In this document: one piece after another, positions 6,274-62,016 of the stretch | Layout: every line of letters starts with the position of its first letter | How positions within the stretch are numbered: position 1 is the stretch's first letter | NCBI GenBank assembly: GCA_028824575.1 | Contig: JAPPDN010001023.1 | Location: forward strand, 25,347 to 89,346 | DNA from: Candidatus Poribacteria bacterium | GTDB lineage: Bacteria > Poribacteria > WGA-4E > WGA-3G | Direction of reading: 5' to 3' | DNA: 64,000 nt | Notes under the pieces: model-generated | The model's database searches: none | What the model was told of the DNA's origin: nothing | What the model saw: the letters and a program-made list of their open reading frames with translations, nothing else | Translations under genes and position numbers: made by a program

Positions 6274-6274
6274 A

Positions 6275-6997: not shown

Positions 6998-7020
6998 TAA
7001 TCCATCACAGAGATAAAACG

Positions 7021-7813: not shown

Positions 7814-7960
7814 TGTCTTCCTCATGAAAACGTGACCGAGAAAGTTTAGCATTCATGCGCGCTACGGAATTAGTACAGGTATTGGTTGAATTGTAATTGT
7901 ATCCATCTTTGAGAGGAATCATTCGGCCAGTTTGCCTCTCTGAGTAGAATTTCTTATTGT

Positions 7961-17286: not shown

Positions 17287-18266
17287 CTTTTATTCTCCTT
17301 CGTAAAATGATCACGAATTCGCCGCCGCCAGACCTCATAAGCGGGTAAATTGCTATCGGATGGAAGATCCTTCAGAGCAACATCCGTGATGTAAGCAGCG
17401 GCTTTTGCCGACGTACCACACAGAATTTCACAGGCGAGTTCTGTATGCGGCGCGGGGTTCCTGGCTCGTTGACGCGCTTTTGCCGCAAAAGCTGCTCCTT
17501 GTGCCATATGAGATTGATGCACATCTGCTTGAGTCCGCAAAGTTTCTATAGCCGCACCATCCACACCGCCCGCATAAGCACAGGCAAGCCCTACGCCTGC
17601 CCAAAGGTCCTCATGCCGTGGTGGGGCGAAGGCCTTGATAGTTTTAGGAATCCTCTCAACATCGGCACCGTCCACAAACCAAAGGCTTCGCCCCAATCCC
17701 TGATCAAAAACCCGCATAGCGTAGTCAGAAAGTCGCTTAGGAGTCACATGCCCTTCAACGAAACGGGGCCAATGGAAGTATCCGGAGTGAAACCCATAAC
17801 CATCCTGAGCAAGCCAGCGCAGTAGCGGGTCCAAGCGCGCCAGAGCCCGCGTAACGTCAAGGCGAAGCCAAGGAAGCCTTGCAAGCACCCAACCAACGCC
17901 CACATGCATCATGTACACATGAGCCTCCCCTGGACCGGAAAGAAAGTCGTACAGACGTTTTCTGCGAAACGGGGAGAGATAATCAAGGAGGCAGAGGCCC
18001 ATCGCTGCTCCCTCGAATGCGAACCCGCGATGCTCAATATCAACAGCGAAAAGTCTTCTCTCAAGTATCTCTGGTTCGTCATCGAGAAGTGCCGCATGAT
18101 ATCCTACTAGGAAAGTGTGACCAATTTCCTCCAATCGCTGTTGTGCCCCAACGGGGCCCTTCCGAAAGCCACGCCGGGAAAAGGTCACTTCCTGTGGAGA
18201 GATGCCTAAGAGATGTTTCCGAATGTCCCCGAGAAAAGAAATTCCTGCTACAAGTGTTTTTCCCAC
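17283..18266 (-). CDS. Conserved hypothetical protein, UnbL/SgcE3-like (probably DUF1702, from memory) by position and size
   Basis: I chose the GTG at 18266, which is preceded by a perfect AAGGAGG with a 5-nt spacer; the ORF-track TTG at 18290 has no RBS. About 327 aa, translationally coupled to the UnbV-like gene. Assignment rests mainly on synteny. Confidence 0.6.
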   Translation of the reverse strand: MGKTLVAGISFLGDIRKHLLGISPQEVTFSRRGFRKGPVGAQQRLEEIGHTFLVGYHAALLDDEPEILERRLFAVDIEHRGFAFEGAAMGLCLLDYLSPFRRKRLYDFLSGPGEAHVYMMHVGVGWVLARLPWLRLDVTRALARLDPLLRWLAQDGYGFHSGYFHWPRFVEGHVTPKRLSDYAMRVFDQGLGRSLWFVDGADVERIPKTIKAFAPPRHEDLWAGVGLACAYAGGVDGAAIETLRTQADVHQSHMAQGAAFAAKARQRARNPAPHTELACEILCGTSAKAAAYITDVALKDLPSDSNLPAYEVWRRRIRDHFTKENKR

Positions 18267-18496
18267 TGAAACCTCCTTAAAAATATCCAAGAAATACGAC
18301 GATACGGGAGAAGAGTGTTGAAAAAGCGTTGGATCGTCCGATAACTCCCCCTTCTGAGGTACAACGCAATAGGTTCAGCATCGACACACGTCTCATCATC
18401 GCAAGGGGGCCCGGACACTACACAAGAAAACTGACGGAACTGTGTCATTGATAAATGTGGATACAAAACATTAAAGAGTGATAAAATGCCGGACAT
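18248..18496 (-). CDS. Small hypothetical protein (82 aa) heading the E3/E4 transcription unit
   Basis: ATG at 18496 preceded by AAGGAG. It overlaps the revised E3-like start by 19 nt. I recognise no family. Confidence 0.35.
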   Translation of the reverse strand: MSGILSLFNVLYPHLSMTQFRQFSCVVSGPPCDDETCVDAEPIALYLRRGSYRTIQRFFNTLLPYRRISWIFLRRFQWEKHL

Positions 18497-22718: not shown

Positions 22719-23717
22719 TTAGATATCTTCCGAATATATTTCTTTCACAACTGCTTCAATTGTTGGTTCTTCAATCTTCATGTCCCGTGGATGGAAGTGG
22801 TCAAGGATCGTTTGAATGATATTAATTGCCGAAATTTCATTTTTGTCAAATGAAATCGTTAATGAGTAATCGTTTCGTTTTGTGAATTCGAGTTGGGCGA
22901 TATTTAACTTCTCACGAATAACATCTATATCAATGTGCTCATAAAGGTCTATCTGAATTTTTCGTTTTCTTGCCAACTCATTTTTTGCTTTTTCTAGGTC
23001 CCCGTCAAAGATAATTTTACCTTGATCAATAATGAGGGTTCTTTGGCAGAGATACTCGATGTCACTGAGGTCATGCGTCGTTAAAATTATGGTCGTTCCG
23101 AGACTCGCATTCATTTCTTTAATGAATTCTCGAATATTCGATTTCACTGCAACATCGAGTCCAATCGTAGGCTCATCGAGAAAAACAACAGGTGGATTAT
23201 GTAATAAAGAAGCAGCAATATCACACCGCACCCTCTGCCCCAAGCTTAATTTTCGGACAGGAATATGGAGGAGTGGACCAATTTCTAACACCTCATCAAA
23301 CTTTTTTAACTGCTTTTGAAAATCATTTTTGCTGACTTCATAGATGTCCCTGAGGAGAGTAAAGGCCTCAATGACAGCTATATCCCACCACAATTGGGAA
23401 CGTTGTCCAAAAACAACACCTATATTTTTTACATGTTGCCTTCTCTGCTTATGAGGGACAAGACCGTTCACCTCCACCCTTCCCTCGGTGGGGGTAAGAA
23501 TCCCTGTCAATATTTTAATTGTCGTTGATTTGCCGGCACCGTTTGGACCAATGTAACCGAGAGTCTCTCCTTGTTCAACATGGAAACTTATATTATCTAC
23601 TGCTTGAACGAATTGATACTCTCTTTTGACCAAGTTCATCAAAGCACCCGATAATCCCTCCCTACGCTTAGAAATTTTGAACGTTTTGGTCAGGGTTTCG
23701 ACCTCGATTAAAGCCAT
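22719..23717 (-). CDS. ABC transporter ATP-binding protein (ABC-2 exporter type)
   Basis: Walker A GPNGAGKSTT, signature LSLGQRVR, Walker B VVFLDEPTIGLD, H-loop TTHDL. GGAGGA RBS. Confidence 0.9.
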   Translation of the reverse strand: MALIEVETLTKTFKISKRREGLSGALMNLVKREYQFVQAVDNISFHVEQGETLGYIGPNGAGKSTTIKILTGILTPTEGRVEVNGLVPHKQRRQHVKNIGVVFGQRSQLWWDIAVIEAFTLLRDIYEVSKNDFQKQLKKFDEVLEIGPLLHIPVRKLSLGQRVRCDIAASLLHNPPVVFLDEPTIGLDVAVKSNIREFIKEMNASLGTTIILTTHDLSDIEYLCQRTLIIDQGKIIFDGDLEKAKNELARKRKIQIDLYEHIDIDVIREKLNIAQLEFTKRNDYSLTISFDKNEISAINIIQTILDHFHPRDMKIEEPTIEAVVKEIYSEDI

Positions 23718-23755
23718 TAGACCATTCCTCCATCATTTCAGCATGAAAAACTCAA

Positions 23756-24565
23756 TCAAGAACCAGCACTCTCATACCTTTGAAGGCCCCTCTTCCATAT
23801 GAACAACCCGATTCCCCATGTCAAAAGGGCAATGAGAGGAGTCATTCTCACGTGAAAGATATAATCCGTTCTCTCCAAAAAGAGCGTTGCCGGATAAAAT
23901 GAAGTAAATGCCAAGGGGAGTATCCAAGAAAGAAATACTTGTAATGGAGCACTGTAAATCGTGATTGGATATTTCGCGAAATCACGAATTGTCATTAAAG
24001 GCCAAGCGATTGCCCCTGTTGGATCCTTCACCCAAAAAGTTAGGCTAACCAAAATCAACACGACCCCCCCCAAAATCAAGACAGCAGAAAAAATCAGGAC
24101 AACAAAAAAGAAAAGCAAATGGTAGGAGAAAGACAAATTTAACTTAACAGCGGCGTAGGATAAAGCACCGAATCCCAGCGCTAAAGTGGAGAACGAACCA
24201 ATGTCCAATCGCTCAATGATAATCTGAAGCAGAGGTGGCAGCGGGCGAAGCAGGACGCGGTCCAAGTTTCCATCAAGAATGTAAAGACGTCCGAGGTTGA
24301 TGAGATTTGAAAAGAACATTGAAAACAAAGCCATGGAGGTTTGGGAAAACCCGTAAATAAAAAGAATCTCCCCATAACTCCAGCCATTAATGTCAGGGAT
24401 ATGGTTGAAGATAGTCAATACAAAAATAAGCGTTCCGATTTGAGCTGAGAGAGCAGATACTATCTGAATCAAAACATCGGCTCGATACTCGAGGCGGGAT
24501 TTTAAATACTGACTAAGATATCGAAAATATATCTTGCTATAAAAAAAGAGGGACCGCATCGACAA
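23756..24565 (-). CDS. ABC-2 family transporter permease
   Basis: Six-helix hydrophobic protein in an operon with the ATPase and a paralogous permease. Possible TTG start at 24565, or ATG at 24559. Confidence 0.7.
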   Translation of the reverse strand: MSMRSLFFYSKIYFRYLSQYLKSRLEYRADVLIQIVSALSAQIGTLIFVLTIFNHIPDINGWSYGEILFIYGFSQTSMALFSMFFSNLINLGRLYILDGNLDRVLLRPLPPLLQIIIERLDIGSFSTLALGFGALSYAAVKLNLSFSYHLLFFFVVLIFSAVLILGGVVLILVSLTFWVKDPTGAIAWPLMTIRDFAKYPITIYSAPLQVFLSWILPLAFTSFYPATLFLERTDYIFHVRMTPLIALLTWGIGLFIWKRGLQRYESAGS

Positions 24566-24570
24566 AAAAA

Positions 24571-25431
24571 TTAGCCCCCTTGTATAGTTATCTTTTGAAT
24601 GGAATTTTTAAATAAAAAATATCCTGCTGTGGACAAAGCGAACACCCAGACAGTTTGAGCGCACAACACAGCGATTCCGGCTTCTTTGCCTAAATGACCT
24701 AAGTAAATTTCCATAGGCTGATAAAAGATGAACCGAAATGGTAAGTAATTCATCGTTGAGACCAGCCATGCAGGATACATCACCAATGGAATCAATGTTC
24801 CCGATAACAGTTCAATAATCGCAGAGGTTGCGTGGAGAATACCTGAGTTATCTTCGACATAGAAGATGGTTAGCCCCACCAAAAAAGCGATTCCAGCATG
24901 AACCAAAGCCCCTAATACAAGACTGGTGAGAAATATTGCCAGATGGTCTGGGGCAGTTAATCCGACTAGTAATGCCCACAGGGTTAAGACTGGAACAATC
25001 CTAAAGACGGAGTGAAACAAAATGCCTCCGAATGCGTGGAAATAAATGTACAGTTGGTAACTGACTGGTTTTAAGAGATTCATAATCAGTTCGCCGGTAC
25101 GGTACTGCCCTCCCATTTCACGAGAAATTGCCCCCGAAAATTCGTTTATAAAAAAGCGAAATACACCAGCAATTGCCACGTATGTAACCATATCTTTGAG
25201 AGAATATCCTCGAATCACTCTTCCATCGGTCAAAATTGCTTTCCAAAGAAAATAACTCACGATCACTATCAGAAGATATTCCGTTAAAACTAAAAAAAAA
25301 TGGGCGCGGTAACTGAGTTTATCAACAAAGCGAATCTTGCTGAATCTGATATAAATTCTGAGATGTCTCCAAGACTTTCTGAGATTTTCCATTACAAAAA
25401 GCGAGATAAGAATTGACACTCTCATATGCAC
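24571..25431 (-). CDS. ABC-2 family transporter permease
   Basis: Polytopic protein, same operon. The start is ambiguous between 25431 and MENLRK at 25392; neither has a clear RBS. Confidence 0.65.
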   Translation of the reverse strand: MHMRVSILISLFVMENLRKSWRHLRIYIRFSKIRFVDKLSYRAHFFLVLTEYLLIVIVSYFLWKAILTDGRVIRGYSLKDMVTYVAIAGVFRFFINEFSGAISREMGGQYRTGELIMNLLKPVSYQLYIYFHAFGGILFHSVFRIVPVLTLWALLVGLTAPDHLAIFLTSLVLGALVHAGIAFLVGLTIFYVEDNSGILHATSAIIELLSGTLIPLVMYPAWLVSTMNYLPFRFIFYQPMEIYLGHLGKEAGIAVLCAQTVWVFALSTAGYFLFKNSIQKITIQGG

Positions 25432-25469
25432 TCAAAATTCTACAGCGTGTAGAGGGTATCCTTGGGAGA

Positions 25470-26474: not shown

Positions 26475-26567
26475 CTCTAATGTTATCCCTTAAAAGTTGG
26501 GTAGCACCTCAGAGACAAACTTTATACTACTTTGGAAATCGGTAGAATTCTGTCATGCTGATATTTT

Positions 26568-28328: not shown

Positions 28329-28382
28329 AATTCTTCCTTCTCTGTTCCAACTTCATTTGCATACTTTTAAGAGCATCTTGTG

Positions 28383-29435: not shown

Positions 29436-29522
29436 TATTGTCCTCGCAAAAATCGCGGCAACTCAGCCGCCTTGTTTATACCTCGTGTAGTTTTGGTGTA
29501 TGACAAGAATTTACGAGCGTAT

Positions 29523-44696: not shown

Positions 44697-46169
44697 ATGA
44701 ACCGTGACATCTTCCGAGCGTATGATATTCGAGGTATTTTTGGCGTAGACTTTGCCCAGAAGGACTTTTATAGAATTGCCCGTGCCTTTGCTGCTCGCTT
44801 TCAACCGAAAACCGTTATAGTAGGACACGATGTCCGAGAAAGTTCACCACAACTTGGGCAGCAGGTCACTGAAGGACTCCGAGACTCAGGCGTTGATGTT
44901 CTCAATCTGGGTCAGATTTCAACCGATATGCTCTACTTCGCTGTGGCACACTATCAGACGGACGGTGGCATTACCATCTCCGCCTCCCATAATCCCGCAG
45001 CATATAACGGCATGAAACTGGTGCTCCGAAATGCAACACCCCTTTCATCAGACACTGGACTCTTTGACTTGCGCGATGAACTTGAACGCGGGAGCCGATT
45101 TCGGACACAAAGCACACACAGGCAAGGCACCCTTGCGTCTCTTCCATTTCTTGAGGCATACCTCACACACCTCCGCACGTTTATTAACTGGCAACATCTC
45201 TGCCAGAAACGGATCGTCATCAACGCTAACAGTGGGCTTGCGGGGCAGGTTGCCGAACGCCTGTTAGCGGGGACACCGATTCATATCTGTGAACGGTTGT
45301 TTACACAACCCGATGGCACATTCTCCGGCATTCCGGAGGGACGTCCCGACCCGTTGCGGCCGGAGAATCGTGGATTAACCACAAGGGCGATAAAACAGAC
45401 TGGAGCCGACTTCGCTGTCGCATGGGATGCGGATGCTGATAGGTGCTTTTTCTTTGATGAATATGGTGGATTTGTCGAGGGATGCTACATCACAGCCTTA
45501 TTTGCTGAATGTCTCCTTCAGCAAAACAGGGGCGGGGGGGTCATCTTTGATCCAAGGGCGATTTGGGCGGTAGAAGATGCTGTTCAAAACGCTAACGGCA
45601 CGCCTATCCTCAACCGATGCGGACATTCTTTTATCAAAGCTCGTATGCGAGAAATGGATGCACTTTTTGCGGGAGAGGCGAGCGGGCACTACTATTTCCG
45701 AGACAATTTCTATGCCGATAACGGCATGATTCCCTTTCTGCTTGTCCTTGAAAACCTCTGTGCCAAGCGACATTCACTCGCAGAATGGGTCGCTCGGCTC
45801 CGAGCAGAATATCCGGTCTCTGGCGAAATCAACTTTGCCTTTGAAAGCCACGGCCTGATGCGTGATGCTATGAACGCAGTCCAGCACACGCTGCACCGTT
45901 GGGGGACCCCCAGCATTGAAGCACCCATCGACGGGCTATCGGTCCGATTTCTCACGTCGTCTCGAAAACACACCACAGATCCGTTCGGGCGCGGCAACTG
46001 GCGGTTCAATCTTCGAGAGTCGAACACCGAACCTCTTTTGCGACTCAACGTTGAGACAAGGGGAAACGAAAATCTACTCATCGAGAAGACTGAAATACTC
46101 AGCAACGTGTTAGAGACACTTGGAGGCCGGAGAGAAACAAGGTTTCGTTGGGAGACAGGGTCTCGTTGA
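44697..46169 (+). CDS. Phosphomannomutase/phosphoglucomutase (alpha-D-phosphohexomutase)
   Basis: The start at MNRDIFRAYDIRG has an AAGGAG RBS. Active-site TISASHNPAAYNGMKL, metal loop DADADRCFFFDE, sugar loop GEASGHYYF. Confidence 0.9.
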   Translation: MNRDIFRAYDIRGIFGVDFAQKDFYRIARAFAARFQPKTVIVGHDVRESSPQLGQQVTEGLRDSGVDVLNLGQISTDMLYFAVAHYQTDGGITISASHNPAAYNGMKLVLRNATPLSSDTGLFDLRDELERGSRFRTQSTHRQGTLASLPFLEAYLTHLRTFINWQHLCQKRIVINANSGLAGQVAERLLAGTPIHICERLFTQPDGTFSGIPEGRPDPLRPENRGLTTRAIKQTGADFAVAWDADADRCFFFDEYGGFVEGCYITALFAECLLQQNRGGGVIFDPRAIWAVEDAVQNANGTPILNRCGHSFIKARMREMDALFAGEASGHYYFRDNFYADNGMIPFLLVLENLCAKRHSLAEWVARLRAEYPVSGEINFAFESHGLMRDAMNAVQHTLHRWGTPSIEAPIDGLSVRFLTSSRKHTTDPFGRGNWRFNLRESNTEPLLRLNVETRGNENLLIEKTEILSNVLETLGGRRETRFRWETGSR

Positions 46170-46636: not shown

Positions 46637-46831
46637 ATGAAAACCGCTAAACTGAATCGGATTAAAGAAGTCGGTAAAAAAACTGTTTCTGAATTCGTCC
46701 GTTCCGAAACTGGAAGTGTCGGTGTCAAGAATGCTGCAGCTATTGGAGCCTTCGCAGCCGCCCTCGCACTTAGCCAAACTCCCAGCGAAGCCATTACAGT
46801 GAGTATTGGTGGAGTTGTCACAGCAATATAA
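46637..46831 (+). CDS. 64-aa small peptide: candidate precursor or secreted peptide with an Flp-like N-terminus
   Basis: AAGGAGG RBS 9 nt upstream. MKTAKLNRIKEVGKKTVSEFVRSETGSVGVKNAAAIGAFAAALALSQTPSEAITVSIGGVVTAI. The N-terminal 40 aa are paralogous to the peptide at 58309..58581. A 13-bp stem-loop (46853-46885) follows the stop. Confidence 0.6.
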   Translation: MKTAKLNRIKEVGKKTVSEFVRSETGSVGVKNAAAIGAFAAALALSQTPSEAITVSIGGVVTAI

Positions 46832-47260: not shown

Positions 47261-48970
47261 ATGCTTAAATGTCCAGCAACACCCCATCGTCTCCACAAAT
47301 TCAGACACAAAGATAGGTTATATTTAGCGGATCTGAATCTGTTTCGGTTAATTGAAGTCAATCAAATTGCTTGGGATGCTGTGGAATTGTCCGTGACGCT
47401 GAAAACACCTGAGTTAATAGATCAGTTAAGCAAAATCTATCCGAAGCCATCCGTCATTGAAACTTTAGAAGCCTTGGGGGATCTTCAAAATAACGATCAT
47501 ATCTTTTATGCCGATTCACAGCAACATGCACCCACAGAAATTAGAGATCGGTTGAAAATTTATGTGCCCCAAAGCAAAGAGGCATGGTTTAAAGATCCGG
47601 AATCACTTTGCGCCGGAACGAATATCGCTTTATATCAAACAATGCAAAGTCTCTCGAAGTTCGCTGATGTTTACATATCGGGAGAATCAGAAGAAGAAAT
47701 CATTCCTGGCGTTCGCACAATAAAACTTTCGAGGGAGGAACTACAAGAATCACCGAGAAGATTCAATCAAAGCCTGAATGAATTGAAAGTGAACGGCATC
47801 TTGGCTTATCAAACCTGTGGCACTTATGACCTTTTACCCTTGCTCCGGGGCGTTAATGTGCCGATCGTTATCCAAAACCATGGTCCCCGAGGACATGCGG
47901 GTTTAGCGATTAATACCACACTGCTACATCACGCCTTAATGCGTCCGTTTGATGCCATTACGGCACCTTCAGAGTCCGTCGCCAAATTCTACGCAAAATT
48001 CGTCGGGGATACCCACCATTTTCACAGCAATCCCAATGGTGTAGATGCTCAGACCTTCAGACCCATGGATAAATCCGAGGCAAAAGCGCAACTCGCTGAA
48101 CTGATGCAAGATAATCGGATTCAAGAGCAATTCACCGTCGGATTTCTCTCGCGATTCCAACCCGAAAAGGGGGGGCATGTCTTTGTCCAATTGGCTGAAA
48201 AGCATCCGGACCTACTTTTTCTGGTAGGTGGGTCGTATTTACTCCGTCCATCCGCCCAGCAATTACCCGATAACCTCATCTATGTCGGCTTTTTACCTCG
48301 GAAACAGTTACCAATGCTCTACAACGCTTTTGATGTCTACTGTTTTCCGACAATGGCGGGAGAAGAGACGTTTGGACTCACACTCTTGGAAGCCATGGCG
48401 TGCGGGGTCCCCCCCGTGGTTCCGAGGTTTGATGGATTGCCTGAAGTTGTTGGAGAGGCAGGTGTCATTGTCGATGCCGAAGAGTTAGCAGAAGATATGG
48501 CAGGTTTCGCAGCTACTGTTTCCGCGGAGTCCCTATCTAAGGGCGTTCAGGAATTGATTGCGGATGAATTTCGCCTCGAAATCGGACAGAAGGCACGCAC
48601 TCGCGCCCTGACGCTCACATGGGATAACAACGCCAAACGTCTCGTTCAACTTTTCCAAGAATTAAATCAAATCAAACAGAACCAGCGGAACGCACCAGAC
48701 TTATCTGTGGGTTTCGTTAACCATTATGATGCGTTTCAAAATCAAGTGGAGAGTCAAGCACTCCTGCTCAATTTAACACCGTTGTTGGAGGCACCCTTAC
48801 AGAAAAAGAGTGGATATGTTCAAACAATGGAAGAAGGATTGGCACTCACTTTGCTAAAACGGCATACCCCCAAACAGGTGGAAGCCGTTCTATCGCACGT
48901 GTTAGACGATGCATCCAACGCCCCTAAAATTGTTCAAAGGGTTCTGAACTTCCTGAATGTGTTGGCGTAG
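47261..48970 (+). CDS. Fusion protein: N-terminal PqqD/RRE-like domain + GT4-type glycosyltransferase + conserved C-terminal module
   Basis: N-terminus HKFRHKDRLYLADLNLFRLIEVNQIAWDAVELSVTLKTPELIDQLSKIYP...ETLEALGDLQNNDHIF (PqqD-like pattern). GT motif GEETFGLTLLEAMACGVPPVVPRFDGLPEVV. C-terminal EEGLALTLLKRHTPKQVEAVLSHVL is shared with the next gene. Confidence 0.7.
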   Translation: MLKCPATPHRLHKFRHKDRLYLADLNLFRLIEVNQIAWDAVELSVTLKTPELIDQLSKIYPKPSVIETLEALGDLQNNDHIFYADSQQHAPTEIRDRLKIYVPQSKEAWFKDPESLCAGTNIALYQTMQSLSKFADVYISGESEEEIIPGVRTIKLSREELQESPRRFNQSLNELKVNGILAYQTCGTYDLLPLLRGVNVPIVIQNHGPRGHAGLAINTTLLHHALMRPFDAITAPSESVAKFYAKFVGDTHHFHSNPNGVDAQTFRPMDKSEAKAQLAELMQDNRIQEQFTVGFLSRFQPEKGGHVFVQLAEKHPDLLFLVGGSYLLRPSAQQLPDNLIYVGFLPRKQLPMLYNAFDVYCFPTMAGEETFGLTLLEAMACGVPPVVPRFDGLPEVVGEAGVIVDAEELAEDMAGFAATVSAESLSKGVQELIADEFRLEIGQKARTRALTLTWDNNAKRLVQLFQELNQIKQNQRNAPDLSVGFVNHYDAFQNQVESQALLLNLTPLLEAPLQKKSGYVQTMEEGLALTLLKRHTPKQVEAVLSHVLDDASNAPKIVQRVLNFLNVLA

Positions 48971-49025: not shown

Positions 49026-50690
49026 ATGATTCAATTACCCAAAAGCCTTCAGCCAATTCATACATTTGAAGAAGCCGGTGTCTGGTATGTCGCACATCTC
49101 CAGAGGGGAGATGTCCTTAAAATTGACCCACTCACAGCCGATATTCTCACTTTATGTAGCACAACTGATAGCGCAGGGATTGTTAAAAAACTGGCGGACA
49201 CATACACAGAAGGCGAGATTCTTGAAAGTCTGAAAAATTTGAGTGGCGATATGGAGGAATTTCTGTTTGAACCTGAGGACATACCTGCTTTCCGCCGTAA
49301 AATAACGCAATCCAGATTAAGGATTTTTATTCCCCACGGCTTCATGAAGTATAGGGAAGTTCTGGGACCGACAGTGAATGCCGGGATTTATAACCTACTC
49401 GTAACGCTTACAAAATATGCCGATGTGTTTGTAGAGGCTGATAACAATCCTACCGTTATGGAACAGCGGGAGCAGCTAATGGCACTCGGTATTGAGTTCG
49501 TATCCGACCTCTTTGAAGCCAATAAGAATACCCCGGTGCATGCCGCAAATCGTTCTATCATTGAAGAGTGTGACGGCATCCTGACCCTTTCCCCACACCC
49601 ACATGAAGAATTGAATTATTTCCGGCATAACACGATCCCCGTAATTTCGCGCGTCTTTAGTGACAGAAATTTACGCGCAGCAACAATTAACAAAGTCCTC
49701 AGCCACCATTCCCTCCACCGCAGTTTTGATGTGGTTTGTCCAGATACGCCGTGGATATCAGAAGAGTTAGAGACAGTCACAGGGGCGCATTTCAATGGAT
49801 TAACCACGATTCCGAGCGGTGTTGATACTGAAGTCTATTCGCCTCAGAATCGTCAGAAGGCACGCGAAGTCGTCGCTTCCATCGTAGAGGAAGAAAGCAT
49901 TCTACAAATGCCATGTGTTGGATTCATTAATGGCTTTCAACCCCAAAATAACCTCAGAATGATAGAAGAGTTAGCAGTCTTACACAAAGACCTTGCCTTC
50001 ATCATCCTTGACCCAATTCTCTCGCGTCATCATTCCCAAAAACCCCGGAATGTTTTTTACATTGACCTGCAAAGTCCGGAGGATACGCTCGCGCTTTCTT
50101 GGATTTATAGCGCGTGTGAGTTTGTCATATTCCCATCCGTCATTGGGACCCCTTTTTCTATGGTCCTTGAGGCATTGGCGTGCGGGGTACCCGCACTCGC
50201 ACTCGCGCCAACACGTTTGTCTGAAGACTTGCGGGGTTGCATAAAATCCGTACCGATCACCCGAGAGACAACGACGGGTAAATTCGTTATCCCTACGGCT
50301 GCTGTCTCCGAAGAAATAAACGCCCTGCTGCGCGCGCCAAAGCAACGAGCGACCCTATCACGGAAAGCACGGGAAATCGCATCCAATTATTCCTGGGATC
50401 AAACAGCTCGAGAGATTATACAACTCTTTACTGCCCTCAATGAAAAGAAGATGCAGAAGGCAGTACCCACCTATCCCGATGTCGCTTTTTCGCCGTATTA
50501 CAACAAAGCGGAAAATGTCGTAAAAAGTGGTGCCCTACAGTTTGATGGTTTTTTTCAACATCGCGTTGAGGAAGGATTAGCGCAGACACTCTTAGCAGAA
50601 CACACGCCCGAGGAGGTCGGGGTGGTTTTGCGATACATACTCAAGGATGCAGAGAAAGCAGACGAAGTCTTATCTACACTGATATCTTAA
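49026..50690 (+). CDS. Paralogous fusion protein: PqqD/RRE-like domain + GT-B glycosyltransferase + conserved C-terminal module
   Basis: The start at MIQLPKS has a GGAGGA RBS. N-terminus FEEAGVWYVAHLQRGDVLKIDPLTADILTLCSTTDSAGIVKKLADTYTEGEILESLKNL. GT motif GTPFSMVLEALACGVPALALAP. C-terminus EEGLAQTLLAEHTPEEVGVVLRYIL. Confidence 0.7.
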   Translation: MIQLPKSLQPIHTFEEAGVWYVAHLQRGDVLKIDPLTADILTLCSTTDSAGIVKKLADTYTEGEILESLKNLSGDMEEFLFEPEDIPAFRRKITQSRLRIFIPHGFMKYREVLGPTVNAGIYNLLVTLTKYADVFVEADNNPTVMEQREQLMALGIEFVSDLFEANKNTPVHAANRSIIEECDGILTLSPHPHEELNYFRHNTIPVISRVFSDRNLRAATINKVLSHHSLHRSFDVVCPDTPWISEELETVTGAHFNGLTTIPSGVDTEVYSPQNRQKAREVVASIVEEESILQMPCVGFINGFQPQNNLRMIEELAVLHKDLAFIILDPILSRHHSQKPRNVFYIDLQSPEDTLALSWIYSACEFVIFPSVIGTPFSMVLEALACGVPALALAPTRLSEDLRGCIKSVPITRETTTGKFVIPTAAVSEEINALLRAPKQRATLSRKAREIASNYSWDQTAREIIQLFTALNEKKMQKAVPTYPDVAFSPYYNKAENVVKSGALQFDGFFQHRVEEGLAQTLLAEHTPEEVGVVLRYILKDAEKADEVLSTLIS

Positions 50691-52389: not shown

Positions 52390-52446
52390 GGAGAGAGTGT
52401 CTGACCCTACCAAATCAGAATTTTAATGACTCAGGAGGTTTTGGAA

Positions 52447-53691: not shown

Positions 53692-53784
53692 GGTCTTTAT
53701 CCCTGAATATATTCTAATCTAAGGTTTCCGCTGTTAGGAAAGATGAAGCACTTAAGTGGATAAAAAAATGGAGGAGGAATTCCC

Positions 53785-55588: not shown

Positions 55589-56554
55589 TCAGTCTTTCCT
55601 TTGCGACAACCGCTGAATTTGGCAATGTAACACAACATAGCGTTCAAAATCGCTGGAGATTGATTTCGGCATCACCTGGGCCCTGTGATGGTCACTCACC
55701 CGCTTCCACGTTCCGTCGCGTTGCCGTCTTTCGATCTTCATGTAATCTTCGAGCGGGCACCGATACTGGAGATTGTTGCTATACCAGTAGGTGTCATCGG
55801 TTTTCTGGCATTTCCCGTTGACCCATTCTTCGCGGATCGGTTCAGTTTGTGTCCGTCCTGGGAGGGGCTTGGGATATAACTGAAAGATCGCGGGTTTCGA
55901 TTTAGGGCTCAACCGTTCCAGCATCCCTACCTGCGTGAGTTCGGTGAGTATCGAGTGAAAAGTTGCGAGTTTGATTCGACATCTTTTCGACAGTTCGAGG
56001 AGTGTTGCCTGTTCTGTCTGTCCTGCGGTGTCCTCGTGTGCCTTCCAGTTCGATCGAAGTTTCAACACAATCCAGACGAGGGCGGCTTTCCATGAGATGT
56101 CGCCATCAAAACAGCGTTCCAAGGGACCTCCGGGCCCGCGTGGCACTGCGAACGTCAACGGCTTCCCATCTTTATTGACAGGAACATCCTGATACGGACA
56201 AAGATGATGTCGAATCCGATAGCGTTTTCCCGCAGGGTTGTCAGCGTCGATCGTCTTGAGCCAGCCTTTATCCTTGAGGCTCGTTAAATTCTTGATGATG
56301 TACGGTTTTGACATTCCCGGTCCTAATTTCCCTGATAAATAATTGCCCGACATGGGCCAGGTTATCCCAGAATCCCATGAGCTGCCGTGGTGGAGACACA
56401 GACAAATCATTGCTTGGGCTGTCGTGAGGTTACCCTCTCGGAGTTCCCACAGGACACTATATTGACCGCGGGGCACAGGCAGTGTGTCGGTTTCAAACTC
56501 ATACGGGATCGGGTATTTGCCACCAAGAGGCAGATAAATTTGCTGACTGCTCAT
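55589..56554 (-). CDS. Two-winged-helix DNA-binding protein, candidate replication initiator (Rep-like)
   Basis: Two wHTH-like segments: MSKPYIIKNLTSLKDKGWLKTID and ATLLELSKRCRIKLATFHSILTELTQVGMLERL. Iteron-like repeats are adjacent. An 11-bp perfect inverted repeat (56651-56685) lies upstream of the start. The function is inferred. Confidence 0.4.
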   Translation of the reverse strand: MSSQQIYLPLGGKYPIPYEFETDTLPVPRGQYSVLWELREGNLTTAQAMICLCLHHGSSWDSGITWPMSGNYLSGKLGPGMSKPYIIKNLTSLKDKGWLKTIDADNPAGKRYRIRHHLCPYQDVPVNKDGKPLTFAVPRGPGGPLERCFDGDISWKAALVWIVLKLRSNWKAHEDTAGQTEQATLLELSKRCRIKLATFHSILTELTQVGMLERLSPKSKPAIFQLYPKPLPGRTQTEPIREEWVNGKCQKTDDTYWYSNNLQYRCPLEDYMKIERRQRDGTWKRVSDHHRAQVMPKSISSDFERYVVLHCQIQRLSQRKD

Positions 56555-57271
56555 AGTAGAATCTTTCTAAAAAGAGAAAGGCATTGCAGAGCGGGTATCC
56601 GGAGAATGCCGGTATATTTGATAGGCATCTAAAAATCTATATGGAGATGCAGTGCTATGCAGATACAAAGCGCGTGCATAGCACTCTCTGAAGTAAAAGA
56701 CATAATATTCAAAAGTGGTATCGCTTCGGTGTTTCGCTCCGCCACTGGCAGCAAAACGTTTCCGATCTAAGCAACAACCTCCGCCAAGAGGTTGGGGAGG
56801 AGGAACCATTCCCTTGAGAGGGAATTTGGCAGAGATTCCTCCACACCGAAGCTTAGATAGGGAGTGCCAAGAAAATAGCACTCAGAATGTCTGTCTCCAG
56901 AACATTCCATAGATAATTATACCCGACTTCTTGTGAAAAAGTCAAGAAGAAATATCTTTTTCCTTATAGTGATACTTACTGATATACTTAAAGACTTAAC
57001 TTTTATGCAGAAAACGTGCAAGATTGACAAAAATATGAAAAAAACTGAATTTATAGTAGGGTCAATAATTACTTGGACACTCTGATTGTAGCGCAAACTT
57101 TTAGTTTGCGTGCCACCCCCGCACAAACTAAAAGTTTATGCTACGAATGTTCACTTATTTTTCGGTTTTACTATAATTCTGAAGATCAGAGAAATCGAGG
57201 GGAAATGTGGAAGGGGGCATCTCACCGAGAAAATTGTTGGAAAGGCTTGCTCCGCAACACCGCTGCACGTG

Positions 57272-58093
57272 CTATGTTTGCTCGGAAATGGCTCTATCAA
57301 CCCTTAAACTCACTAAACTCATAACCAAATGCTTCGCTACAACGAAAACAACGAAATACATCCCTAAGAAAAAGATAATACTCGAAAAAAACGCCTCCAC
57401 ACACACTGATAACTGCAGTGAAACCCATACGGTCAGAAAACCAGTAATCGCATAATAAACGGGCGTTCTCGGAACACACGACACCAATTTCCCCAGCACA
57501 GTGAACACGCTCAATACCATAACCAGACGCACAAATCCATCCGGCTGCCACCCTAGCCAGTCCGACAGATACGTCAACCCAGAACTGACACCGATCAGGA
57601 GAAGCACGTTAAAGCATTGCTCAAGGAGTGCGGATTTCTCGAAATTTGACATCACAAAACTCTGGAAAAGCAACAACTTGTCGCGTTTTAGGGCGAATCT
57701 GAAAAAGAGGTACACCAGCACGGCTACCGAATACGGGAGGATGATGTTCAGCGCAAGGATCAACGGGGGAAAACTGAACGTCCCGTCCAGGCGTGTCAAT
57801 AGCGATCGCGGAAAGACCAGACATAACCCGCAAAGCAATTTTGAATCCCCAGGCGAGAAAATACCGAACCAATACACCCCAAACGCCATAAAACCGATCC
57901 CTAAAAAAAGCAACAACACATAAATCGGCGCTGTCATACGAAGATACCATGCCATCAATGTGCTCAACGTCCGCGCATGAAGCAGCCCCAGCGAACAAAC
58001 ATTGCGGATCCGCCCCGTCTTCAGGTCGGTATAACCCGCATACCCACGGAAAGTAGGGACTAACGATAGAAGAACGCTCTCGTAGTGTGACAT
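57272..58093 (-). CDS. A24-family (prepilin/TadV-CpaA-type) aspartyl peptidase-like membrane protein
   Basis: The start at MSHYESV has an AAGGAG RBS. First Asp motif YTDLKTGRIRN, second Asp motif IFSPGDSKLLCGL. Polytopic. Confidence 0.65.
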   Translation of the reverse strand: MSHYESVLLSLVPTFRGYAGYTDLKTGRIRNVCSLGLLHARTLSTLMAWYLRMTAPIYVLLLFLGIGFMAFGVYWFGIFSPGDSKLLCGLCLVFPRSLLTRLDGTFSFPPLILALNIILPYSVAVLVYLFFRFALKRDKLLLFQSFVMSNFEKSALLEQCFNVLLLIGVSSGLTYLSDWLGWQPDGFVRLVMVLSVFTVLGKLVSCVPRTPVYYAITGFLTVWVSLQLSVCVEAFFSSIIFFLGMYFVVFVVAKHLVMSLVSLRVDRAISEQT

Positions 58094-58308
58094 CGGTGTC
58101 TCCTTTTCATGAAACCTGTATGCCTCAACCCCGGTAGGTGCGATTTCATGAAGTTTCAAAAAATATTTCGGTAATTCTCTATTTCCCCCGACCCGGTAGG
58201 TGTGGTTTCTAACCGCACCGGCATCGTTGGGAAATTACCAAATTAATAAATTAATCTTCATTTAACCGCACCGGAGATTATTAGAAAATTACTTACCCGG
58301 ACCACGAG

Positions 58309-58581
58309 TCAAACGCATTTGTCTACCCACTCCCCATTGCATTCGGTCCCTTGCAGCGTTCCCTCACACACCTCTTCACAACTTTCCCACAAGTTACAGT
58401 CAAAGTCACTATCACACTCTTCTTTTCCAGAATCATAAGAATGTGCAGAAGGCGGCAGCAGGGCTTGCGCTAACAGCACGCTCCCACTTGCTATGCCTAA
58501 TACCAAGGGTGTTTTCAGACCGACACGTCCCTCTTCAGATGTCAGAAATTGCTTAATTTTTCCACGAAGTTTAGTTTTCAT
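58309..58581 (-). CDS. 90-aa peptide: Flp-like N-terminus plus acidic 6-cysteine C-terminal module
   Basis: ATG at 58581 with an AAGGAG RBS; the longer ORF-track form to 58827 has none. MKTKLRGKIKQFLTSEEGRVGLKTPLVLGIASGSVLLAQALLPPSAHS then YDSGKEECDSDFDCNLWESCEEVCEGTLQGTECNGEWVDKCV. Confidence 0.55.
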   Translation of the reverse strand: MKTKLRGKIKQFLTSEEGRVGLKTPLVLGIASGSVLLAQALLPPSAHSYDSGKEECDSDFDCNLWESCEEVCEGTLQGTECNGEWVDKCV

Positions 58582-59085: not shown

Positions 59086-62016
59086 ATGGTAGATAACGAC
59101 GTTCAACTGATTCGCAGAATTTTGTCGGGCGACGATGAAGCGTTCAGTACATTAATGCGGAAGCACCAAAAAGGCGTTCACGCGCTGATCTGGCGGAAAA
59201 TTGGGGACTTTCAAATCGCTGAGGAAATTACCCAAGATACCTTTATCCAGGTTTACAAAAAACTCGGGACCCTCGACGATCCCAAACGATTTTCCGGCTG
59301 GCTTTATGTCATCGCGAATCGCCTCTGTATTAATTGGCTCCAACGCGATAAGGTAAAAATGGATAAGTTGAATACACAATCCTTCGAGGATACACATCCA
59401 GAGGAAATAGAAGAGGCCTCTCACCTACACCATGCGTCACATCAACGTGAAGCTGAAGCCGAGAGTCGTCGACGGAATCTCGTAAAAACGCTTTTGGAGA
59501 AACTCCCGGAGAGCGAACGCACTGTCGTGACGCTTTACTTTCTCGGTGAAATGACGGCCAAAGAGATCGGCAATTTTTTAGGCGTATCCATCAACACAAT
59601 TAAGAGCCGACTCCGCCGGGCGCGCAAACGTCTCCAAGAAGAGGAAGCCTTGGTCCAAGAAACGCTTAGGGGTGTGCAATTGTCTGACAGTCTCACTGAG
59701 AATGTGATGCGACACATTGCCGAGCTGAGCCCACCCGCGCCACCCCCGTCTAAGAAACCCTTACTTCCTTTGGCGGCACTCGGTGCCGTAGCCGTCTTGG
59801 CGGTCCTCTTCGGTATCGGGGGGCAATATCTCCTCCGGTTTCAGGCACCATACAGTTTCGATGCCGACGCTGAGCCTACCATCGAAATCGTTGATGAACT
59901 CGTCTACCTTGAGATTCTCGCCAAACCCGCAGTGCGGAACCGGAGCGGCAGAACGATCGCACCCGGTGAAAACAGCGGTGCCGGGATGCAAACCGCCGAG
60001 CCTCACTTCACCGCAAACGCAGCGGACGACACGGGGGCCGACTCACAGTGGACACAGGCAATCGGCCCGACAGGCAGTATTGTCTACAATATCTTTGAAG
60101 CCGCTGACGGAACCCTCTACGCTGCCGCAAAAACAGGGCTCTATAAATTGACACCCGAGGCAACATGGGTGCTTCTTAACGCTGACATCCCGATTGGACA
60201 GTACCGAATCCCTATCACCGAGCACCACGGCACCCTCTATACCGTCTCCGCTGATGAAGTGTTGGCTTCAGAAAATGGGGGTGAGACTTGGGATGCCCTT
60301 GGCGCGCGCCCAAAGGGCATCGCGAATGGACTCATCATCACCGAGTCACCCGAGACAGAAGGTATCACCCTGTCCCTCGCCCTTCAAGAGAAAGGCATCT
60401 TCCGATCTACCGATACCGGTCAGCACTGGATGCCCCTCACCACCGGATTGACAGGGAAACGGATTTATACCCTCGCTGCCATCGGAAATACCTTATTCGC
60501 TGGCACCAACCAAGGCCTCTATCGGCTCGATTCAAACGAATGGCACCCATTGCTCACAGACGCAGCCGATGCCATCTACGCCGTGACCGTTGACGGAAGC
60601 GACCTGTATGTCGGAATGGGTCGAGATGTCGAGAGGTCGGTATCCAGGAGACTCAGGCGCCCTAAATCCATAGACAAAAGAATCTTCCACTCCGCGGATC
60701 TTGGAGCGTCATGGACGGACATAACGCCTATAGATGAATCCCAAGTGATGCATCTCGACTCCGGCCTACAGATTTTGGCTGTAGATAAAACGCTCTTCGT
60801 CCTCGGCGTAACCGAATTTCGATCCGGGGATGGCGGGAAAACCTGGACACGCCTCAGATCTAACATAAGTTCAAAGGACACATCGAGATTCCCAGCGATC
60901 GCTATCGATGCGAATACATTTTACAAAGTCGATCCGCACGGAATCAGCCGCACCACCGATGCCGGTGAGTCCTGGCACCCGCTTGTAAACGGGATGACAG
61001 GTCCCAGAACATACGACTTAATTGCCCTGAATCAGAGACTCTATATGCATATCGGTGGACACCTGGTCCACTCCACCGATGCCGGTCAGACCTGGCAACG
61101 CCTGCGCTTCAATACCGATGCGCCGACACCCACATTGGATCCCGATTTTTATGCACGCATAAGACTCACAACTGCCAATAATCGCCTCTATGGCATTTCA
61201 ATTGTGGAGAACAGACCGAGTCTTTTCCGAACATCCGATGCCGGAGATGAACTCATCCCCCTCCAAGGGGTCCCCGCTTTTGAACCCGAGCCACCCCCAG
61301 CCAGGGCAAGCGATAGGTTGCGTCTATCGAGAAAAGTAGGTTTAAGAATCAAAGCCTTCGCTGTCTGGGGTGAGACGTTTTACGCGAAATATCAGGAGAA
61401 ACTTTACAAATGGCACCCCGGAGATACCGAATGGACAGACACAGGACTTGCCGATCTCGACTTTCTATCTTCTATCTTGGCTGTTTCTGGGGAAACTGTC
61501 TACATCAGTAAGCCGTACGGTAAGCCGCGCGGAACATTGTTTCAATCTTTAGACGGCGGAGACTCTTGGAAAGACATCACTGCAAGGCTGCCGAGCGGAT
61601 CCACACGTTCTTTAGACGACGGAGATGTCTTGAAACACAAGGGCATACTGACGAGAAGCCACTTCACACGTTTTAAGGAGATGACCTTCATCGGTTCAGC
61701 CGTTTGTATCGCAACCGACACAGGTGTCCTCACCTCACACACCGGAGAACACTGGCGGGTTATCACAGATAAAAACCGGATGCCCATCGTCATAGAAAAA
61801 TTCGCTACAGACGGCACAACCCTCTACGGGGTCAGCAAGAACGGTGCCTACCGCTTCAATGCTGCCGGAGACTGGGAACTGATTTCCTCAGAGGTTCCCA
61901 ACGGTTCGATTCAATCTCTCGTTATCAGTAACAATCGACTTTACATCGCAACCTCCAGCGACGGCATATTCCACATCTCGCTTGAGGAGCAGATCGATAT
62001 CGCCAACTCGTTCTAA
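59086..62016 (+). CDS. ECF sigma-70 factor fused through one transmembrane helix to a large BNR/Asp-box beta-propeller ectodomain
   Basis: Sigma region 2 AEEITQDTFIQVYKKLGTLDDPKRFSGWLYVIANRLCINWLQR. Region 4 LPESERTVVTLYFLGEMTAKEIGNFLGVSINTIKSRLRRARKRL. TM LLPLAALGAVAVLAVLFGIGG. At least 7 Asp-boxes (SENGGETW, STDTGQHW, SADLGASW, SGDGGKTW, TTDAGESW, STDAGQTW, SLDGGDSW). Confidence 0.85.
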   Translation: MVDNDVQLIRRILSGDDEAFSTLMRKHQKGVHALIWRKIGDFQIAEEITQDTFIQVYKKLGTLDDPKRFSGWLYVIANRLCINWLQRDKVKMDKLNTQSFEDTHPEEIEEASHLHHASHQREAEAESRRRNLVKTLLEKLPESERTVVTLYFLGEMTAKEIGNFLGVSINTIKSRLRRARKRLQEEEALVQETLRGVQLSDSLTENVMRHIAELSPPAPPPSKKPLLPLAALGAVAVLAVLFGIGGQYLLRFQAPYSFDADAEPTIEIVDELVYLEILAKPAVRNRSGRTIAPGENSGAGMQTAEPHFTANAADDTGADSQWTQAIGPTGSIVYNIFEAADGTLYAAAKTGLYKLTPEATWVLLNADIPIGQYRIPITEHHGTLYTVSADEVLASENGGETWDALGARPKGIANGLIITESPETEGITLSLALQEKGIFRSTDTGQHWMPLTTGLTGKRIYTLAAIGNTLFAGTNQGLYRLDSNEWHPLLTDAADAIYAVTVDGSDLYVGMGRDVERSVSRRLRRPKSIDKRIFHSADLGASWTDITPIDESQVMHLDSGLQILAVDKTLFVLGVTEFRSGDGGKTWTRLRSNISSKDTSRFPAIAIDANTFYKVDPHGISRTTDAGESWHPLVNGMTGPRTYDLIALNQRLYMHIGGHLVHSTDAGQTWQRLRFNTDAPTPTLDPDFYARIRLTTANNRLYGISIVENRPSLFRTSDAGDELIPLQGVPAFEPEPPPARASDRLRLSRKVGLRIKAFAVWGETFYAKYQEKLYKWHPGDTEWTDTGLADLDFLSSILAVSGETVYISKPYGKPRGTLFQSLDGGDSWKDITARLPSGSTRSLDDGDVLKHKGILTRSHFTRFKEMTFIGSAVCIATDTGVLTSHTGEHWRVITDKNRMPIVIEKFATDGTTLYGVSKNGAYRFNAAGDWELISSEVPNGSIQSLVISNNRLYIATSSDGIFHISLEEQIDIANSF

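Follow-up and report, generated by a model that had tools for sequence, protein, structure and literature searches.

To our knowledge, A24-type GxGD membrane proteases have until now been known only as prepilin and preflagellin peptidases. What such a protease could be doing beside a gene for a small cysteine-rich peptide is the question raised by a locus at 57.27-58.58 kb (positions 57,272 to 58,581) of the window, the 64,000-nucleotide stretch of a Candidatus Poribacteria bacterium genome analysed here (GenBank assembly GCA_028824575.1, contig JAPPDN010001023.1, positions 25,347 to 89,346 of the forward strand). A preliminary description of the window, made from the sequence alone, had compared the peptide with Flp prepilins and suggested that it might be a peptidase-processed secreted or anchored peptide rather than a pilus subunit. 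We propose instead, at about an even chance, that this 90-amino-acid (aa) open reading frame (ORF) encodes the precursor of a Poribacteria-specific cassette for leader-guided glycosylation and export. The cassette would resemble those of RiPPs (peptides made on the ribosome and modified after translation) and would have its own dedicated GxGD protease, of which the neighbouring gene would be a truncated copy.

A conserved leader and a variable cysteine-rich core

The 90-aa ORF runs from 58581 to 58309 on the minus strand and translates as MKTKLRGKIKQFLTSEEGRVGLKTPLVLGIASGSVLLAQALLPPSAHSYDSGKEECDSDFDCNLWESCEEVCEGTLQGTECNGEWVDKCV. The gene and its parts are the following.

58309..58581, minus strand: gene for the 90-aa precursor peptide, stop codon included (ORF and translation)
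58510..58581, minus strand: residues 1-24, cationic n-region (family motif R-x-K-I-x-x-F-L-x-S-E-E-G-[KR]-V-G-x-K)
58456..58509, minus strand: residues 25-42, hydrophobic segment PLVLGIASGSVLLAQALL (Kyte-Doolittle profile and conserved residues)
58438..58455, minus strand: residues 43-48, c-region rich in Pro, with A-H-S at its end as an AxA-type site like those of signal peptidase I (motif inspection)
58312..58437, minus strand: residues 49-90, acidic hypervariable six-Cys core (Cys framework conserved, remainder variable)

The maximum of the Kyte-Doolittle profile, calculated over 15 residues, begins at residue 26. The core has a net charge of -11, and the Cys spacing of the peptide is C-x5-C-x5-C-x3-C-x8-C-x7-C; the ORF, the spacing and the acidic character are as the preliminary description had given them. 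In an AlphaFold2 (AF2) model the core has a predicted local distance difference test (pLDDT) score of 73-88 and contains a beta-hairpin. A Foldseek comparison of this core with the PDB returned no significant fold match, the best being cystine-dense peptides and omwaprin at E>4. The 90-aa peptide had no Pfam family at E<=0.1. Neither this peptide nor a second, 64-aa peptide of the window had an NCBIfam match at E<=1 or matched any Hxs or PADLOC model.

Sequence searches identified 19 close relatives of the 90-aa peptide and then 475 at the profile level, and those with a name were found only in Candidatus Poribacteria. When a hidden Markov model (HMM) of the leader family was run exhaustively against 1.84 billion representative proteins, only 97 were found at E<=1e-3. 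A logo was built from 124 sequences, namely 122 unique peptides from 62 loci and the two window peptides, and reads M-K-x-N-L-R-G-K-I-R-E-F-L-x-S-E-E-G-[KR]-V-G-V-K-x-P-L-x-L-G ... L-L-A-Q-A ... P-x-A-x-A. Conservation in the leader is very high (F12 98%, S15 99%, E16 100%, G18 99%, V20 92%, K23 92%) and extends to P25, L26, G29, L36 and Q39 in the hydrophobic segment. The cores, on the other hand, are hypervariable; 47 peptides have four Cys and 63 have six. The ratio of nonsynonymous to synonymous substitution rates (dN/dS) of the leader is about 0.2 in close pairs, which indicates purifying selection, and that of the core is about 1.0-1.25 (1.04-1.25 in the three closest pairs, estimates that are not robust at about 42 codons each). 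The conserved-leader/variable-core arrangement that the preliminary description had seen in two peptides is thus borne out by both the logo and the dN/dS ratios, and it is the arrangement expected of a RiPP-like precursor. A twin-arginine translocation (Tat) signal was considered for the same region and ruled out, as the motif K-I-R-x-F-L has Ile at the position of the first Arg.

The neighbouring gene encodes a predicted A24-type membrane protease

The gene that follows the peptide gene on the same strand has these elements.

57272..58093, minus strand: gene, truncated at its 3' end, for a membrane aspartyl protease of the A24 type (GxGD) that is specific to Poribacteria; 273 aa (homologs and alignment)
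58025-58027, minus strand: codon of D23
57845-57847, minus strand: codon of D83

It begins 215 bp downstream of the 90-aa ORF and encodes a polytopic protein with the motifs YTDLKTGRIRN (D23) and SPGDSKLL (D83). The spacer between the two genes includes an 18-nt direct repeat, CCCGGTAGGTG(C/T)G(A/G)TTTC, at 58130-58147 and 58192-58209. The protease has 506 homologs, and among the matches listed nearly all are about 378 aa long. Peptidase_A24 (PF01478) was matched by 43 of 48 homologs at E<=0.01 (best 1e-6) and Arc_PepC (PF06819), the C-terminal domain of archaeal A24 enzymes, by 37 of the 48. In these homologs Peptidase_A24 covers residues 11-118 and Arc_PepC residues 246-338, with scores at or around the gathering thresholds. 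The A24 threshold of 26.5 bits was reached by P0008 (27.2) and P0065 (26.6), while P0118 and P0087 fell just below it and exceeded the score for Arc_PepC. The stretch S80-P81-G82-D83-S84-K85-L86 is invariant in 48 sequences, D23 within Y-T-D-L-K-T is conserved in at least 90% of them, and the first Gly of the GxGD motif is a Ser in this family. Because its homologs match PF01478, the window protein is assigned to the A24 family; it belongs, as far as homology can tell, to a divergent GxGD/A24-type protease family of archaeal-like architecture (Peptidase_A24 plus Arc_PepC). The two Asp motifs and the family membership claimed in the preliminary description were both upheld, the former directly and the latter through the homologs.

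Peptide and protease belong to a recurrent Poribacteria cassette

A scan of one genome per GTDB species yielded 62 protease loci. All 62 belong to Poribacteria; a single chromosome or contig holds as many as three, and both these loci and the named database matches are labelled Candidatus Poribacteria or 'uncultured bacterium'. At 58 of the 62, at least one leader peptide ORF was found within 10 kb of the protease, always on its strand; the other four are contigs of 4.4-10.9 kb. Seven loci (L022, L025, L027, L037, L043, L045 and L067) have a peptide about 450 bp upstream of the protease, as the window does. The pairing of a peptide with an A24 peptidase, first noted at a single locus, is therefore a conserved one, although the window copy of the peptidase is itself truncated by a deletion and has no Arc_PepC region.

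Six contexts were annotated with Pfam (L001, L002, L004, L007, L072 and L074). The genes of the intact cassette share one strand and recur in the order of a glycosyltransferase (GT) pair, at least one peptide-PD40 pair, a methyltransferase, the protease, a protein of 618 aa, a further peptide, and a nucleoside triphosphate (NTP) transferase with a phosphoglucomutase/phosphomannomutase (PGM). The members were counted at the protease loci as follows.

Leader peptide: 58/62
618-aa tetraheme/thioredoxin-fold protein: 49/62
GT pair: 45/62
PD40 propeller: 36/62
PGM: 32/62
Methyltransferase, directly ahead of the protease: 26/62

In the 618-aa protein (L001, 2436-4292), a signal anchor occurs together with a region that resembles a degenerate metallophosphatase and with four CxxCH haem motifs. 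It also has a thioredoxin/DsbA-like domain, and the active site of this domain, C-P-Y-G, contains a single Cys. This is an unusual architecture for a haem-linked thiol oxidoreductase, and it would fit a role in the periplasmic oxidation of the Cys-rich cores.

Genes for STT3-type oligosaccharyltransferases occur within 10 kb of the cassette at six of the 62 loci (L026, L045, L053, L055, L056 and L057) and also in L007 (13501-16267). They may indicate a link to protein N-glycosylation, or their presence may be a coincidence.

Literature searches that paired Poribacteria with prepilin peptidase, Flp or RiPP turned up nothing that describes this cassette. The combination of a Cys-rich peptide, a propeller and a cytochrome recalls the small subunit of methylamine/quinohemoprotein amine dehydrogenases. 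This was dismissed as analogy only, as the propellers are of the PD40/Tricorn type and Me-amine-dh_H is a weak match. The sponge 'srp' proteusin RiPPs of Poribacteria, which have NHLP leaders and YcaO enzymes, are unrelated.

Glycosyltransferases with putative leader-binding domains and a second peptide

The window contains a second, divergent cassette at 44.7-50.7 kb.

44697..46169, plus strand: PGM, 72% identical to the PGM of the L001 cassette
46637..46831, plus strand: paralogous 64-aa precursor with the same leader type, an 8-aa insertion in the n-region, a PSEA site and a 12-aa Cys-free hydrophobic core
47261..48970, plus strand: GT4 glycosyltransferase with a RiPP recognition element (RRE), the catalytic member, EX7E motif intact (Glycos_transf_1, E=2e-23)
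49026..50690, plus strand: second RRE-GT4-like protein, Gly for the first Glu of EX7E (weak GT matches only, plus RRE)

The preliminary description had proposed that the 64-aa and 90-aa peptides share an N-terminal pattern. This was confirmed beyond chance: among 1217 six-frame ORFs of the window, an HMM built from 123 relatives of the 90-aa peptide only found the 64-aa ORF at E=8.5e-5, and the next match was at E=0.43. In tblastn comparisons the 64-aa ORF aligned with numerous leaders of the family; identity was as high as 50% over 32 residues, and its n-region showed an 8-residue insertion. Only one near relative of the 64-aa peptide, P0324, was found in the 1.84 billion representatives.

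About 100 aa at the N-terminus of each GT form a domain. A profile built from 21 of these matched residues 6-93 of CteB (5wgg_A) at E=1.4e-13, and in NCBIfam the not_ScfB model was matched by 19 of the 21 and the SCIFF maturase model by 18. Detection required the profile: a phmmer search of the PDB with one GT N-terminus gave no match, and BLASTP showed no pairwise similarity between the GT N-termini and that of an HxsB-like protein from contig L077. The profile matches show, at the level of sequence homology, that the N-termini of these GT4 proteins are RRE domains. In CteB, the maturase of the SCIFF peptides (PDB 5WGG), the RRE binds the precursor leader as an added beta-strand (PMC6231123). 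Fusions of an RRE to a glycosyltransferase have been noted only as unexplored matches in genome mining (PMC7470986). RRE-bearing candidate modifying enzymes are thus encoded together with the peptides, as a GT pair at 45 of the 62 loci and directly after the 64-aa peptide in the window. The window GTs are at most 40% identical to any of about 100 GTs of the 62 loci.

Over 50 GT pairs, EX7E is intact in 47 of the first members. The second members have Gly in 39 of 50 and Glu in none. This asymmetry suggests a catalytic subunit and a degenerate partner, and the second protein in the window is probably such a non-catalytic partner. The PGM, a recurrent member of the cassette, would supply sugar nucleotides.

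Three genes directly downstream of the window GT pair (50773-55212, plus strand) encode a Big_5/TSP3/transglutaminase-core secreted protein of 538 aa, an unknown protein of 421 aa and an ABC-2 permease of 475 aa that contains a long coiled insert. The cassette of the 64-aa peptide may include these three as additional members.

The leader is related to that of HxsA3-type precursors

The leader profile reached HxsA3-type peptides at library-wide E values of 2.5e-5 to 2.1e-4. Three peptides found in this way, P0323, P0329 and P0331, match the HxsA3 model NF038309 over their N-termini (E=2e-15 to 2e-6). P0323 is located between a radical-SAM/SPASM gene and an HxsB-like gene, and P0331 is preceded by an HxsD-like gene; in addition, the 10-kb contig L077 carries HxsD and an HxsB-like maturase together with peptide/PD40 arrays. 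By profile comparison, homology is shown between the Poribacteria leader and the one of HxsA3-type precursors, whose maturases are radical-SAM enzymes. The relationship is limited to the leader and runs through these three peptides; the window peptides themselves have no NF038309 match and their cores contain no HxS repeats. In the E. coli HXS system, HxsA acts in the periplasm, and the processing of its N-terminus depends on HxsB, HxsC and HxsD (PMC13128918). The HxsA subtype of E. coli differs from HxsA3.

As the GT4 proteins bear RRE domains and the HxsA3-type relatives lie beside radical-SAM maturases, the conserved N-terminus would first of all be a leader for recognition by a maturase. 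We infer that residues 1-24 of the 90-aa peptide form an RRE-recognition leader, with a candidate site for GxGD cleavage after G18.

Membership of the peptides in the Flp family is not supported

The same n-region is the part that led to the comparison with Flp. Two Flp pilins encoded on RefSeq plasmids read RFLKDESG/ATAIEYGLI, with the slash at the cleavage site, and the n-region here reads QFLTSEEG/RVGLKT, divided at the candidate site. If the peptides were Flp-like (type IVc) prepilins, the A24 enzyme would cut after G18 and the helix would be kept, leading to the assembly of a fibre or to surface display of the Cys-rich module. In favour of this are several likenesses to the Flp/TadV-CpaA pair: small precursors in which F-L-x-[DS]-E-x-G is followed by a hydrophobic helix, a conserved A24-family protease nearby, and the requirement for an N-in topology. 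Furthermore, the methyltransferase that directly precedes the protease at 26 of the 62 loci recalls PilD, which is a bifunctional peptidase and N-methylase.

The similarity does not go beyond the short motif. Neither window peptide had a match to Flp_Fap (PF04964) in Pfam. Although hhalign against three Flp sequences (two from RefSeq plasmids) placed IKQFLTSEEGRVGL on FTRFLKDESGATAI, just as the preliminary description had proposed, it did so with a probability of 5% over 14 columns. Counting from G18, 92% of the peptides have K at position +5 and 8% have R, in no case the Glu of Flp; position +6 is S, A or T instead of Tyr, and the helix starts at +7. The conserved AxA site after the helix argues that the helix is removed, and the protease family, at about 378 aa, has the archaeal-type Arc_PepC region. 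Pfam scans of about 40 window ORFs and of the six annotated contexts detected no Tad or type IV pilus ATPase, platform protein or secretin. Relatives of the Hxs type and the modifying enzymes that bear an RRE both indicate peptide maturation instead. Because Flp_Fap, the Glu and the Tyr are all missing, an AxA site follows the helix and no Tad genes are present, membership in the Flp family is unsupported, and we consider Flp-like prepilins very improbable. What is left of the relation would be an analogy in function, with an N-in peptide that an A24 enzyme cuts at the boundary of the n- and h-regions, and this is unfit for annotating the locus.

The suggestion of a peptidase-processed peptide rather than a pilus hence held in two respects, as this is not a pilus locus and the peptidase does belong to the A24 family. 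It had missed the context of RRE-GT4 and HxsA3, and the competing explanation by the general secretory (Sec) pathway has gained weight.

The window locus is a shortened copy

When aligned with L074, a TARA contig that carries the nearest intact locus, the window DNA showed two deletions. The first corresponds to L074 positions 5880 to 9310 and removed the GT pair. The second, of 2.5 kb (L074 10807 to 13312), fused codon ~269 of the protease to the last ~120 bp of the next gene; in blastn, homology to the L074 protease stops at L074 10807 and resumes at 13312-13372.

57229..57288, minus strand: deletion junction, homologous to the 3' end of the tetraheme/thioredoxin-fold gene (blastn against L074)

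As a result, the window copy ends at residue 273 instead of the 378 aa of most homologs and the Arc_PepC region is lost, with no remnant of the protease C-terminus downstream. A second TARA contig, L072, has the same two-deletion state. From these alignments, the 57.27-58.58 kb locus is a deletion remnant of an intact cassette that lost the GT pair, the protease C-terminus and the oxidoreductase gene. With these deleted, the 90-aa peptide would need to be served in trans by another cassette; the divergent one of the 64-aa peptide is located at 44.7-50.7 kb.

A 21-nt inverted repeat at 57088-57144 (90% complementary, 15-nt spacer) is located about 130 bp downstream of the truncated protease stop codon, near the deletion junction. 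It could be a terminator hairpin or the end of a mobile element.

The deletions raise the possibility that the locus in this genome is a non-functional relic, decaying after the gene losses. Both deletions being common to the window and L072, and the Rep3-type replication genes and, in L074 only, an integrase that adjoin related loci, are consistent with this. The closest relatives of the window protease also fit: P0001 carries D23N, and P0002 and P0003 have an 18-aa insertion beside this active-site Asp. The protease in this lineage may thus be decaying. A core dN/dS of about 1 is what a relic would show as well, yet with a strictly kept Cys framework it fits diversifying selection equally well. 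Nonetheless, the ORFs of the peptide and the protease are both intact, the leader is under purifying selection (~0.2), and the two catalytic motifs lie within the retained N-terminal 90 residues. The dN/dS of the truncated protease, at 0.31, is not raised over the 0.29-0.30 obtained against the full-length gene. We regard a relic as rather unlikely, while keeping it as a serious alternative for this copy.

Mobile-element genes were found near several cassettes, with Rep3-type replication initiators in L072 (10936-12231) and L074 (14233-21137) and the integrase in L074; the window has an integrase and a ParA gene at 5183-6928, and contig L004, which also bears a cassette, carries the label of a 182-kb circle. 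Integrative elements or plasmids may therefore serve as vehicles for the cassettes. The 321-aa protein encoded at 55589..56554 of the window was considered as a Rep3 protein and rejected, being dissimilar to the Rep3 proteins that flank related loci.

On the other side of the peptide gene, and divergent from it, lies a gene of a kind that was seen divergent to the cassette in four contexts independent of one another.

59086..62016, plus strand: fusion of an extracytoplasmic function (ECF) sigma factor and a BNR/Sortilin-type propeller (Pfam)

These proteins combine an ECF sigma-70 domain, a transmembrane segment and a large BNR/Sortilin propeller; the other three are at L007 1015-3885, L072 6008-8926 and L074 2919-5318. 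A possible role is that of a one-component regulator of the cassette.

A proposed maturation pathway and the Sec alternative

The pathway that we propose draws on the homologies, the linkage, the conservation of motifs and the deletion history, all of which the sequence analysis shows. The cationic residues 1-24, with the motif I-x-x-F-L-x-S-E-E-G, would stay in the cytoplasm and be bound by the RRE domains of the GT4 heterodimer, which would glycosylate the peptide using a sugar nucleotide from the PGM and the NTP-transferase. Residues 25-42 would then insert N-in/C-out, the orientation that GxGD proteases require, and the A24-type protease would release the leader by cutting at the cytoplasmic boundary, with the cut most likely following G18, which is 99% conserved. 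A further cut by signal peptidase I at the AxA site (residues 46-48) could free a core of about 40 residues. The six Cys of the core would be oxidised in the periplasm, plausibly by the tetraheme/thioredoxin-fold protein, and the mature core would act with, or on, the adjacent PD40 propeller.

The AxA site is also the basis of another explanation, in which signal peptidase I alone frees the peptide. The long n-region would then serve only in binding the RRE or maturase or in the timing of export, and the A24 protein would clear the leftover N-in fragment like a signal-peptide peptidase, or act on another substrate. Much of the peptide's design agrees with this. An n-region of charge +5, an 18-residue hydrophobic region and a Pro-rich c-region follow one another, columns 46/48 hold AxA in 63 of 113 peptides and VxA in 14 (77/113 together), and the AxA-type site is mostly two to three residues ahead of the first Cys. 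Distant relatives keep this layout, for example PQPALA/VCPC and SPKASA/WDGC, where the slash marks the predicted site. However, the n-region is 24 residues long and carries a motif, and the AxA sites were assigned by motif inspection. In addition, the protease is embedded in the cassette at 58 of the 62 loci, on the same strand and often directly after the peptide gene, and G18 is conserved at 99% exactly at the boundary of the n- and h-regions where A24 enzymes cut. Processing by Sec and signal peptidase I alone seems to us rather unlikely.

Several points weigh against a leader-guided cassette with a dedicated GxGD protease. Cleavage, glycosylation and export are deduced from sequences throughout, and the conserved AxA would by itself explain release of the core without an A24 cut. 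We know of no exact precedent for cytoplasmic glycosylation followed by Sec export of a peptide with a hydrophobic leader. The E-E-G motif persists in the radical-SAM-type relatives, and no A24 gene was seen on the 10-kb contig L077 (the contigs of P0323, P0326 and P0331, at under 1.6 kb, are too short to show one nearby); the conservation of the motif may therefore reflect binding by the RRE rather than recognition by the protease, which again agrees with processing by Sec alone. As to the protease, matches to the Peptidase_A24 HMM came from the homologs, while the 273-aa window protein had no match in Pfam, NCBIfam or PADLOC. Searches of the PDB with the single sequence and with a 48-sequence profile found no A24 structure. 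The AF2 model, made from an alignment of 48 sequences that are all at least 56% identical, is unusable at a pLDDT of only 52.7, and the placement of D23 and D83 in helices is of equally low confidence. The changes at D23 in the closest relatives, and the decay that they may indicate, count in the same direction.

With the leader-guided cassette as the starting point, a broader proposal can be made, which we offer as tentative and on the doubtful side. The A24-type GxGD protease would be the dedicated leader peptidase of a new RiPP-like class, in which disulfide-knotted mini-proteins of about 40 residues are glycosylated by an RRE-GT4 heterodimer, exported by a signal-like leader, oxidised by the tetraheme protein and paired one-to-one with PD40 propellers. 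Present in several copies per chromosome across sponge-associated and marine Poribacteria and with cores that would be under diversifying selection, such products could be an arsenal for defence or host interaction that is derived from, or sister to, the anti-phage HXS systems.

If these proposals are right, leader-guided protein glycosylation by RRE-GT4 pairs would be added to the enzymology of peptide natural products, and a GxGD/A24 membrane protease would remove leaders outside pilus biogenesis. The shared leader ties a multi-copy cassette found only in Poribacteria to anti-phage HXS, a system characterised recently, and offers a handle on swaps between radical-SAM and GT4 maturases on one leader scaffold. 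In these uncultured bacteria, which in many of the source genomes are associated with sponges, a family of hypervariable secreted cystine-rich peptides that each have their own propeller partner may plausibly take part in defence against phages or in interaction with a host. The whole cassette merits experimental follow-up, and the result for the degraded window copy is more modest.

Other loci in the window

Two further gene groups, both on the minus strand, were recorded. The first, at 7385-18290, includes a single-module polyketide synthase (PKS) of 1980 aa (7961..13903) with ketosynthase, acyltransferase, ketoreductase and dehydratase domains (KS-AT-KR-DH), which we presume may be the sponge-symbiont 'Sup'-type PKS known from Poribacteria. 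Its neighbours encode a thioesterase-like protein (7385..7852), an RnfD/NqrB-like membrane protein (13900..14844), an FG-GAP/ASPIC protein (15319..17286) and a DUF1702 protein (17283..18290). The second, at 20998-31025, has an ATP-binding cassette (ABC) transporter ATPase and a pair of ABC-2 permeases (22719..25431), after which GT4, metallophosphatase, GT2 and NTP_transf_5 genes form a cluster, and is probably an exopolysaccharide or glycoconjugate locus.

Comparison with known systems

Taken together, the sequence relationships suggest that the cassette is a system for RRE-dependent peptide maturation that is related to Hxs and whose set of enzymes is without precedent, namely a GT4 pair, an A24 protease and a tetraheme/thioredoxin-fold protein. 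The closest known system is HXS with HxsA3-type precursors. The leaders are homologous, both systems have two paralogous maturases, and in L077 HxsD and an HxsB-like gene have peptide/PD40 arrays next to them. The catalytic domains differ, being GT4 in Poribacteria and radical-SAM/SPASM in HXS, and so do the cores, which are Cys-rich in the former and consist of His-x-Ser repeats in the latter. No HxsD homolog was seen in the Poribacteria cassettes examined, and these add the A24 protease, the tetraheme/thioredoxin-fold protein and the methyltransferase.

The SCIFF/ranthipeptide system (CteA-CteB) shares the RRE, matched by about 90 N-terminal residues of both GTs, and a conserved leader followed by a Cys-rich core of about 40 residues. 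However, the Poribacteria GTs have no radical-SAM/SPASM domain, the precursor is twice as long and includes a membrane/export segment, and the modification is probably glycosylation plus disulfides rather than the thioethers of SCIFF. On the protease side, the archaeal class III signal peptidases have the same domain architecture (A24 plus Arc_PepC, PF06819). They differ in that the protease family described here is bacterial, found only in Poribacteria and linked to substrates of RRE enzymes; moreover, the archaeal enzymes prefer K/R at -2 and -3, where the Poribacteria leader has E-E.

Two other systems resemble the cassette in its logic. Glycocins such as sublancin (SunA, SunS, BdbA/B and SunT) are ribosomal peptides with disulfides and glycosylation, and like the Poribacteria cassette their clusters comprise a precursor, a GT, thiol-disulfide oxidoreductases and a leader protease/exporter. 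Their GT, however, is a GT2 enzyme that has no RRE, and a double-Gly leader and a C39-ABC exporter take the place of the RRE-GT4 pair, signal-like leader and GxGD protease. The GtfA/GtfB proteins of the serine-rich repeat adhesins are, like the Poribacteria pair, two paralogous GT-B proteins, a catalytic GT4 and a degenerate partner, that act before export on a substrate with an unusually long conserved signal region. The substrates are unrelated, and in Poribacteria accessory Sec is absent and RRE domains are present.

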